IMG/VR virus record: IMGVR_UViG_3300022924_000017
Coordinates: 22,054 to 86,053 of that record
DNA from: a virus
Taxonomy: Duplodnaviria > Heunggongvirae > Uroviricota > Caudoviricetes
DNA length: 64,000 nt
Direction: 5' to 3' (one strand)
Position 1 is the first letter of the stretch; every line of letters starts with the position of its first letter. The notes under the pieces are model-generated. The model was not told where the DNA came from. It was given only the letters and a program-made list of their open reading frames with translations, and did not search any database. Shown here one piece after another: positions 22,723-22,913 of this stretch. The position numbers were made by a program, and so were the translations under genes.

Positions 22723-22751
22723 TTGCAATGCCATTTATTATTATGGTATAA
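22723..22751 (+). promoter_or_regulatory. strong sigma70-type promoter (extended -10)
   Basis: TTGCAA - 17 nt - TGgTATAAT. Confidence 0.6.
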
Positions 22752-22757
22752 TGAAAT

Positions 22758-22913
22758 TATGAAGACATTATATAGTCACTCACTACTATCTCAGCTCTGG
22801 TCAAATTGCCCGGATCAATTTAGTGTAGGTGTCGTGTCGTATTCTTCATAAGAAGATTTTAGAAAACAAACATACGAAGACACCTGCACCACAAATGTAG
22901 GTGTCTTTTCTTT
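22758..22913 (+). ncRNA. candidate small RNA (promoter-to-terminator unit inside the tRNA array)
   Basis: bounded by the promoter at 22723-22751 and a 12-bp-stem rho-independent terminator at 22877-22913; only a 21-codon ORF inside. Confidence 0.4.
22877..22913 (+). terminator. rho-independent terminator
   Basis: AAGACACCTGCA-ccacaaa-TGTAGGTGTCTT followed by TTCTTT. Confidence 0.7.

Follow-up and report, generated by a model that had tools for sequence, protein, structure and literature searches.

The small transcription unit located inside the tRNA array of this virus, between tRNA-Glu and tRNA-Trp, is best explained as a ribosome-mediated (leader-peptide) attenuator of transcription that controls entry into the distal half of that array, a reading to which we assign a probability of approximately 70%. 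The parts of the element, its mutually exclusive folds, its recurrence in divergent phages and the match between the composition of its leader and the tRNA genes downstream were all found by computation. Positions are given in the window, that is, the whole stretch of 64,000 nucleotides that was analyzed.

The tRNA array of the window occupied positions 21208–24760 on the plus strand, with 22 tRNAs called by ARAGORN and further tRNAs called by Rfam only or at low threshold. It was interrupted by a gap of 595 nt between tRNA-Glu (22633–22707) and tRNA-Trp (23303–23385), and the array and gap contained the following features outside the element itself:

21208–22707, plus strand: tRNA block 1, containing Lys, Ile, Ile(UAU), Val, Met, Arg, Thr(UGU), an odd tRNA-like element, Gly, Arg, Ala, Lys and Glu

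22925–23034, plus strand: conserved structured RNA domain, the first RNA 3′ of the attenuator, with compensatory changes in its closing helix

23303–24760, plus strand: tRNA block 2, presumed to be regulated, containing 14 tRNAs (Trp, Asp, Asn, Pro, Phe, Tyr, Cys, three Leu, two Ser, His and Gln)

Both tRNA-Ile(UAU) (21374–21444) and tRNA-Thr(UGU) (21815–21885) of block 1 were confirmed by Rfam alignments. The structured RNA at 22925–23034 had no match in Rfam, and the remainder of the spacer, up to 23302, was kept in the closest relatives only. The phage genes of the window included a polynucleotide kinase-phosphatase and an RNA ligase, which we take to be the T4-type tRNA repair pair, as well as a tmRNA; in six relatives the tmRNA gene was found at the 3′ end of block 2. 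Genes of the tRNA-repair type together with tmRNA form a context in keeping with the attenuator model.

The element in the gap was composed of a promoter, a short ORF (leader ORF 2) and a terminator with a competing antiterminator, as follows:

22723–22728, plus strand: internal promoter, −35-like hexamer TTGCAA, 16 nt past tRNA-Glu

22744–22752, plus strand: extended −10 element TGGTATAAT, with TATAAT at 22747–22752 and TG 5′ of the hexamer

22759–22851, plus strand: leader ORF 2, 30 codons plus TAA, putative translation MKTLYSHSLLSQLWSNCPDQFSVGVVSYSS

22768–22824, plus strand: sampler, codons 4–22 of leader ORF 2 (19 consecutive codons), LYSHSLLSQLWSNCPDQFS

22823–22833, plus strand: segment 1, GUGUAGGUGUC, the 5′ arm of the antiterminator, within codons 22–25 of the ORF, pairing with 22879–22889

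22837–22877, plus strand: inner stem-loop of the antiterminator, with the stop codon TAA (22849–22851) in the apical loop

22879–22889, plus strand: segment 2, GACACCUGCAC, the shared strand, whose partner is either segment 1 (antiterminator) or segment 3 (terminator)

22876–22908, plus strand: intrinsic terminator hairpin of 13 bp with a 7-nt loop, −18.4 kcal/mol, z = −5.8

22906–22918, plus strand: U-tract UUUUCUUU (22906–22913) plus AACAA

The two hexamers of the internal promoter (22723–22752) matched the consensus at 10 of 12 positions. They and the extended −10 were present as originally predicted (TTGCAA-17-TGgTATAAT), except that the spacer is 18 nt and not 17. Promoter-like matches were not rarer in the region than expected by chance (8 found compared to 8.7 expected), and the assignment was made because the promoter is conserved in the two closest relatives and the −10 spacing is fixed in divergent relatives, not because of the match itself. 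The −35 hexamer varied in close relatives (TTGTAT and TTGCAC). The sequence TG(n)TATAAT was located 6–7 nt 5′ of the leader ATG in 9 of 12 loci, and TATAAT-N5–7-ATG occurred 9 times in the window compared to 1.07 times expected. Because the −10 hexamer of the window ended 6 nt 5′ of the leader ATG and was not followed by a Shine-Dalgarno sequence, this spacing suggests that the leader mRNA is probably leaderless, with its 5′ end at or beside the AUG.

The interval had been described as containing a 21-codon ORF. The frame was found to be open past Phe21, reading ...CAA TTT AGT GTA GGT..., and to end at the TAA at 22849–22851, which gives 30 codons. The sampler within it was restricted to the 11 amino acids of the downstream tRNAs, and all 11 (Trp, Asp, Asn, Pro, Phe, Tyr, Cys, Leu, Ser, His and Gln) were present. 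In a six-frame translation of the 64-kb window, this was the sole run of block 2 amino acids to contain all 11, and its length was the longest of any such run, tied with one other. Codons 1–3 (Met, Lys and Thr) and the Val and Gly codons of the tail (codons 23–26) specify amino acids of the upstream block 1 tRNAs, and the Ser and Tyr codons of the tail, which comprises codons 22–30, belong to block 2.

A sister element with the same order of promoter, ORF and terminator was found before tRNA block 1:

20955–21201, plus strand: sister element (promoter, ORF and terminator)

20955–20983, plus strand: sister promoter

20991–21152, plus strand: leader 1, a near-leaderless 53-codon ORF with 85% block 1 amino acids

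21179–21201, plus strand: sister terminator GGAGCU/AGCUCU plus U7, 7 nt 5′ of tRNA-Lys (21208)

In all loci having block 1, the distance from the end of leader 1 to the first tRNA (Lys) was 52–89 nt, usually approximately 56–62 nt, and the leader 1 terminator was conserved as AGGAGCU-loop-AGCUCCU-U5; an example of leader 1 is MKRIVITGTKRAEGTERAVVKRVSKSTFTIQP. Leader 1 of the window and of three relatives (L011, L014 and L035) showed an antiterminator, which was not significant over all loci (p = 0.19). The leader 1 product of the window has Lys-rich ends around a hydrophobic core and in this looks like a small membrane protein.

The recurrence of both elements was examined in a set of 16 loci, comprising the window and 15 related loci with about a dozen distinct sequences. 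When the neighboring RecT-like gene (19456–20130, minus strand) was used as the starting probe, two near-identical IMG/VR contigs (L005 and L007) and a distant one (L004) were obtained; the protein database and further scans yielded 12 more loci on contigs of 25–103 kb, with RecT identities of 50–81%. A metagenome scan returned the same contigs as IMG/VR, and no matching locus was found in a scan of bacterial and archaeal genomes. Matches of the region to cultured phages by blastn were confined to the tRNA-Glu part, and no close cultured relative was found with the RecT-like and terminase proteins. In all 16 loci the recurring unit was located between tRNA-Glu/Tyr and tRNA-Trp, and in every locus the gap contained an extended −10 promoter (or, in one subclade, a Shine-Dalgarno-like sequence), an ORF of 24–35 codons and a terminator. 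The order of the array was common to all loci: Lys, Ile, Val, Met, Arg, Thr, Gly, Arg, Ala, Lys and Glu in block 1, then the gap, then Trp, Asp, Asn, Pro, Phe, Tyr, Cys, three Leu, Ser, His and Gln in block 2.

The nucleotide and peptide sequences of leader 2 could not be aligned between clades; the order of the peptide was scrambled and the amino-acid set was retained, as seen in the divergent examples MRKSYSNSLLWNHFDQPNDLSFGAASFSA, MKTLQQYSNCNLWSFDPDTITVGF, MKTNVLHQPQSSWLNLCSQFNDDLAQGV, MTYSLQQQLNCNHWPLSSDYFTMGA and MKVLFQQPNFNFWSFNPVLIRVGV. The same held for the RNA, since the architecture was kept across clades and the hairpin sequences differed. Variation in the leader was low among close relatives: the window, L005 and L007 differed at three codons in the first 21, all at the third position and all synonymous, and in the clade formed by L015, L017, L019 and L037 there were 3 variable sites in the 63-nt sampler compared to 44 in the 63 nt upstream. 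Four held-out loci, fetched after the hypothesis had been fixed, were screened blindly and automatically for ORFs of 18–60 codons with at least 72% of one block and a terminator downstream. Both predicted leader ORFs were found at the predicted places in 4 of 4 loci. Besides these, the screen picked up a shorter version of leader 1, from another start in the same frame, in three loci, and in L019 an out-of-frame ORF overlapping leader 1.

When the leaders of non-redundant loci were pooled, leader 2 contained 155 residues of block 2 and 49 of block 1, and leader 1 contained 43 and 235, respectively. The odds ratio was 17 (Fisher test, p = 1.6e-42), a p-value that is optimistic, as are all pooled p-values here, because related loci are counted as independent. 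In the 4 held-out loci the odds ratio was 18 (p = 5e-25). Block 1 codons are mostly purine-initial and block 2 codons mostly pyrimidine-initial, and the codons that run counter to this first-base bias served as a control. Asn, Asp and Ser-AGY codons were found 9 times in leader 1 compared to 62 times in leader 2, and Arg-CGN codons 27 times in leader 1 compared to once in leader 2 (p = 1.7e-15). The bias-breaking codons track the tRNA blocks and not a purine/pyrimidine rule. The result for the held-out loci and the scrambled leader sequences argue that the signal is not one of simple inheritance.

The composition of the leader also varied with the tRNA genes of each locus. When a block 2 tRNA was present downstream, its amino acid was found in the leader in 110 of 111 cases, compared to 13 of 21 cases when the tRNA was absent (p = 9e-7); in these 13 the leader amino acid had no detected downstream tRNA, and the presence/absence patterns of Cys and Tyr were imperfect. 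In L004, where the downstream tRNAs are Trp, Pro, Phe, Asn and Gln only, the sampler is FQQPNFNFWSFNP. Exactly one Trp codon was found per leader in 12 of 12 leaders. A preference of the leader codons for the Watson-Crick cognates of the phage anticodons was not evident. A further case, the lack of His in the leader of L012 as a consequence of a missing tRNA-His, was dropped because a weak tRNA-His candidate exists in that locus.

The strong terminator and U-tract of the original prediction were confirmed as the 13-bp hairpin at 22876–22908 followed by UUUUCUUU; none of 200 shuffles folded as well, and the hairpin was missing from the list produced by a simple terminator scan of the region. 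The motif TTTCTTTAACAA was kept after the terminator in most divergent loci despite the differing hairpin sequences. In the minimum-energy fold of the transcript the terminator was absent, and 22823–22833 was paired with 22879–22889, the 5′ arm of the terminator. The antiterminator fold of 22818–22892, folded alone, had a free energy of −26.8 kcal/mol (z = −5.8). The terminator and antiterminator are mutually exclusive because 22879–22889 is common to both, and in L005 and L007 two C-to-U changes in segment 2 preserve G-U pairs with both partners. In the first 12 loci, tested against 500 dinucleotide shuffles per locus, the best partner of the terminator 5′ arm was found in the last 3–9 codons of the ORF in 11 (p ≤ 0.022 each), with a combined p of 2.5e-12 in which near-duplicates are included. 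The partner was located in the last 3–9 codons in 3 of the 4 held-out loci (combined p = 0.0011). Segment 1 did not pair with the upstream ORF more strongly than shuffled sequences did (combined p = 0.12), which gives no support to an anti-antiterminator or pause hairpin of the trp type. Such a segment 1:2 hairpin is a mark of the trp subtype and not of the attenuator class.

These findings also bear on the view that the interval is a free-standing sRNA gene, that is, a stable RNA of approximately 150 nt that acts in trans, as in T4 and T5, with the ORF being irrelevant. A promoter and a strong terminator mark the ends of the interval, and the transcript as a whole has a better fold than its shuffles (z = −4.0); stable RNAs are annotated among the tRNA genes of T5, and terminated attenuator RNAs can act in trans, as does rnTrpL of Sinorhizobium, a terminated attenuator RNA with a trans role. 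However, the conserved signal lies in codons and amino acids tied to tRNA genes, the discordant-codon control included, variation among the closest relatives is third-position and synonymous, the architecture and not the nucleotide sequence is conserved between clades, and an antiterminator would be purposeless in a constitutive gene. There was also no match to Rfam: no family was found over the interval, a check that had been among those originally proposed, and a search of 22650–23350 at E up to 10 returned only tRNA and chance-level matches. A free-standing sRNA is thus an unlikely explanation, and nothing requires a trans role for the terminated RNA, although it may have one. What stands of the original prediction is the discrete promoter-to-terminator unit with a small ORF inside the array, from which a terminated transcript of approximately 150 nt is expected. 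The reading of that unit as a stable or trans-acting sRNA, regulatory or similar to rnaC/rnaD of T4, gives way to a cis-acting attenuator in view of the ORF that overlaps the antiterminator arm and of the composition that tracks the tRNA genes.

The effect of a ribosome on the cis-acting switch was modeled by folding only the RNA 3′ of the ribosome, with its leading edge set 12 nt past the first base of the A-site codon. In 9 of 12 loci, most positions at which the ribosome could stall in the sampler gave the antiterminator (in six of those nine as one unbroken series), and the terminator was obtained once the A site was within roughly the last 7–16 positions, the stop codon being counted. In the window the antiterminator formed with the ribosome at codons 4–18 and the terminator from codon 20. 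In the remaining three loci (L012, L016 and L018) the antiterminator was thermodynamically weaker and the equilibrium model favored the terminator throughout. In this simple footprint model the last two or three codons of the sampler were too near segment 1 for antitermination. For the untranslated window RNA the probability of the terminator was 0.05 at equilibrium; with no supported anti-antiterminator or pause hairpin, untranslated window RNA would therefore read through at equilibrium.

From these results we infer that the ORF is translated, that its start is leaderless and that the switch has the following direction and physiological role. Transcription from the extended −10 promoter would probably begin at the AUG itself, and a ribosome would translate the 30-codon leader, with codons 4–22 sampling the 11 amino acids of the downstream tRNAs. 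If any of the sampled aminoacyl-tRNAs was scarce, the ribosome would stall 5′ of segment 1; segment 1 would then pair with segment 2, the terminator would be blocked, and RNA polymerase would continue into the structured RNA and the 14 tRNA genes. With smooth decoding, the ribosome would cover segment 1 and reach the stop codon, segments 2 and 3 would pair, and transcription would terminate at the U-tract. The result would be negative feedback on tRNA supply, because the regulated tRNA products would speed the decoding of the leader, and this may be useful when host tRNAs are depleted or cleaved. The control codons are single and do not occur in runs of the his/phe type, which makes the sensitivity of the switch uncertain. 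Transcripts reading through from block 1 would carry the leader 2 ORF internally, where it has no obvious Shine-Dalgarno sequence.

An attenuator of opposite or broader logic is a quite improbable alternative. It would be either a general sensor of translation activity or a device in which ribosome-polymerase coupling suppresses the terminator, so that good translation leads to read-through. The preference of ribosome-free window RNA for the antiterminator is in its favor, since any block of translation would then give read-through, and the same-strand tmRNA gene that closes block 2 in several relatives fits a response to translation stress. However, the stop codon is 25 nt 5′ of the terminator hairpin in the window and about 25–40 nt 5′ of it in the relatives, so that a ribosome cannot mask the hairpin directly, and a non-specific sensor gives no reason for the exact choice of amino acids. 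Of the two versions, the general sensor can be reconciled with the tRNA-responsive attenuator and does not compete with it.

It is very unlikely that the element is a micropeptide gene, with a functional 30-residue product and an incidental composition. The ORF is conserved and has strong start signals, and the membrane-protein appearance of leader 1 in the window would suit such a gene. However, between clades the order of residues is scrambled and the length ranges from 24 to 35 codons, with only the amino-acid set being kept, and RNA pairing places its own constraint on the 3′ part of the ORF. Leu, the most frequent residue in membrane helices, is missing from the "membrane" cores of leader 1, which is what a restricted alphabet would give. 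The suggestion of a micro-peptide gene in the original prediction is hence disfavored by an amino-acid content that tracks the downstream tRNAs in about a dozen phages while the order does not persist. Equally hard to sustain is a plain operon boundary, in which a constitutive terminator and a promoter split the array and the ORF and alternative pairing arise by chance: promoter-like matches are as frequent as in shuffles, and some transcripts must end at the terminator because a promoter lies upstream of it, but the order of promoter, ORF and terminator would be pointless for a simple boundary, and the alternative pairing and composition match recur in about a dozen divergent loci and passed the held-out test.

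The tRNA-responsive attenuator resembles in its layout the leader-peptide attenuators of amino-acid biosynthesis operons (trpL, hisL, pheL, thrL, leuL and ilvL, of which thr and ilv are multivalent). Like trpL/hisL-type leaders, it has an upstream short ORF with control codons, an intrinsic terminator and a competing antiterminator whose 5′ arm can be reached by a ribosome finishing the ORF, and stalling is proposed to lead to read-through. Its presumed targets, in contrast to theirs, are tRNA genes and a structured RNA and not enzymes, and 11 (block 2) or 9 (block 1) amino acids are covered, mostly by one to few codons each, compared to runs of one to three amino acids. It is also phage-encoded and probably leaderless, and no anti-antiterminator or pause hairpin was detected in it. 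The pheST attenuator, with its pheM leader, controls the phenylalanyl-tRNA synthetase of E. coli and is likewise a case of leader-peptide attenuation of a component of the translation apparatus that is read via the supply of charged tRNA. There, however, a synthetase is controlled via one amino acid, whereas here the tRNAs are the product, which would make a direct feedback loop at the tRNA level.

Other known devices share single traits with the element. The T-box riboswitch binds uncharged tRNA via its specifier loop and T-box bulge without a ribosome, and it has in common with the proposed attenuator the sensing of tRNA status and a terminator/antiterminator choice upstream of translation-related genes. 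No match to the T-box family (RF00230) was found in 22650–23350 at E up to 10, and judged by its sequence the element is not a T-box. As in T4 (rnaC/rnaD) and T5, a small non-tRNA transcript would lie between phage tRNA genes, but the Rfam search of 22650–23350 at E up to 10 returned no match to these stable RNAs, for which Rfam may have no models; those of the T5 tRNA region (RNAI, RNAIII, rna1–3 and RNAX) are annotated as "stable RNA with unknown functions." The T4 and T5 RNAs may be more comparable to the structured RNA at 22925–23034. The small ORFs of the T5 tRNA region had no sampler-like composition, so not every phage with a tRNA array carries the device. In mycobacteria, leaderless polycysteine short ORFs are described as Cys-responsive attenuators (bioRxiv 10.1101/834739). 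There a polycistronic transcript opens with a leaderless short ORF whose translation governs downstream expression, an arrangement that the element, if it is leaderless, would share. The mycobacterial ORFs differ from it in being runs of one amino acid ahead of cysteine-related operons, with a different host and class of genes.

No description of leader-peptide control of phage tRNA genes was found in the full-text literature, from whose coverage many subscription papers are missing, so that absence there is not proof of novelty. If the attenuator reading is true, this would be the first case of leader-peptide attenuation controlling tRNA genes and the first attenuator with a multivalent sensor of 9–11 amino acids. 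Phage tRNA arrays have been discussed as a means to offset codon-usage mismatch and to survive host defenses that cleave tRNA; to our knowledge, little has been established about how their expression is controlled.

With regard to the two elements together, we lean towards a model for an uncultured clade of siphovirus-like phages of 77–103 kb in which the array of approximately 25 genes is organized as two operons, each gated by a "tRNA-stat" leader that samples the whole set of tRNAs downstream. Shortage or cleavage of any of these tRNAs, for example by host anticodon nucleases, would stall the ribosome and turn on transcription of replacement tRNAs, joined in some relatives by a tmRNA. Such a design would account for the split of the array into two blocks with a fixed amino-acid membership across the clade. 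It would also mean that the logic of bacterial leader-peptide attenuation has been turned into a direct homeostat of tRNA supply, in which the controlled genes write the composition of the sensor, and it would suggest that phages sense tRNA depletion in real time. The rule that leader composition equals the downstream tRNA set could be used to find such switches in other genomes, and the leader would offer synthetic biology a compact, programmable sensor of multiple tRNAs.

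A second leader-like unit, made up of a promoter, an ORF and a terminator, was found before the first tRNA gene:

20955-21201 (window): second leader-like unit, ahead of block 1, the first group of tRNA genes

Its near-leaderless ORF (leader 1, 20991-21152) has 53 codons, 85% of which specify block-1 amino acids, a richness unmatched by any other small ORF in the window, and its terminator lies 7 nt ahead of the tRNA-Lys gene (21208). Equivalents of leader 1 were present in every relative with block 1, located 52-89 nt (mostly ~56-62) ahead of tRNA-Lys. An antiterminator for leader 1 was without statistical support.

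Candidate near-leaderless starts recur across the window, where TATAAT was followed 5-7 nt on by ATG nine times compared to 1.07 times expected, at these positions:

12251, 20561 (-), 20952 (-), 20978, 22057, 22747, 47667, 57551 and 61614 (-): TATAAT-to-ATG sites

One of these sites begins a 75-codon ORF (22069-22296) within block 1. This excess suggests that the phage clade makes general use of leaderless or near-leaderless mRNAs for expression.

The spacer 22914-23302, ahead of the second group of tRNA genes (block 2), contains a conserved RNA element directly 3' of the attenuator, the proposed leader-peptide switch at 22723-22913:

22925-23034: conserved structured RNA domain

Compensatory changes were found in its closing helix (7 sequences), the stretches GGAC(G/A)AGGCU..GGCACGGUA and AAACCGUGAUGGGUAGCG were invariant, and no match to the domain was found in Rfam. 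The other ~270 nt of the spacer were kept in the closest relatives only, part of them also in L011. Directly 3' of the terminator hairpin of leader 2, the ORF of the attenuator, TTTCTTTAACAA (window 22907-22918 and equivalent sites in relatives) was kept in most of the divergent loci, and the hairpins themselves differ among the loci keeping it. Possible roles for this motif are as a site of processing or as the 5' terminus of the downstream RNA.

Genes for tmRNA were located in the window and in related tRNA-array loci:

Window 41971-42328; L013 1848-2284; L014 3415-3776; L016 1376-1734; L018 61-416; L035 1582-1908; L036 1265-1627: tmRNA gene

In six relatives the gene shares a strand with block 2 and sits at its 3' end, and because of this position tmRNA may be under the same attenuator as block 2. 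The window gene is 17 kb from block 2. A further element was observed immediately ahead of tRNA-Trp:

L012 ~5955-6040, L015 ~5195-5290, L017 ~4655-4700 and L004 7305-7375, minus strand: tRNA-like element of 70-90 nt

It reads GGGGCUA...UAGCUCCACCA and includes a G3:U70 pair, its UCGACGG/UUCGGACG stems resemble tmRNA, its T-loop is odd, and it is without the coding part. It looks like a free-standing tmRNA acceptor domain, and the L004 copy scored only 32.7 bits against the tmRNA model.

Several tRNAs were detected by Rfam and missed by ARAGORN (window 21374-21444 and 21815-21885, which are Ile(UAU) and Thr(UGU); L011 6025-6096; L014 5613-5684; and others), their T-loop being the non-canonical GGGGCAG(A/U)ACC in place of GGUUCGAAUCC. 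Gaps in the array are occupied by:

21892-21969 and ~23634-23712 (window): tRNA-like sequences whose anticodon loop is abnormal (6 nt, 8 nt or very short)

They bring to mind what the annotation of phage T5 calls 'tRNA-like stable RNAs'. In several relatives the arrays were interrupted by homing endonuclease genes (HNH, GIY-YIG, Endonuclease VII), which may explain leaders retaining codons for tRNAs no longer detected downstream. At L011 ~6600-6640 (minus), a promoter and an endonuclease gene come after a possible tRNA-Trp remnant or interrupted copy (..GGUCUCCAAG..).

Elsewhere in the window, ORF 34902-35816 matched the TET-associated glycosyltransferase family, a match that hints at hypermodified phage DNA. 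Two adjacent genes were also found:

13878-14810 (-): polynucleotide kinase-phosphatase
14829-15740 (-): RNA ligase

Together they make up the T4-type tRNA repair pair, an indication that the phage is under pressure from host defences that cleave tRNAs.
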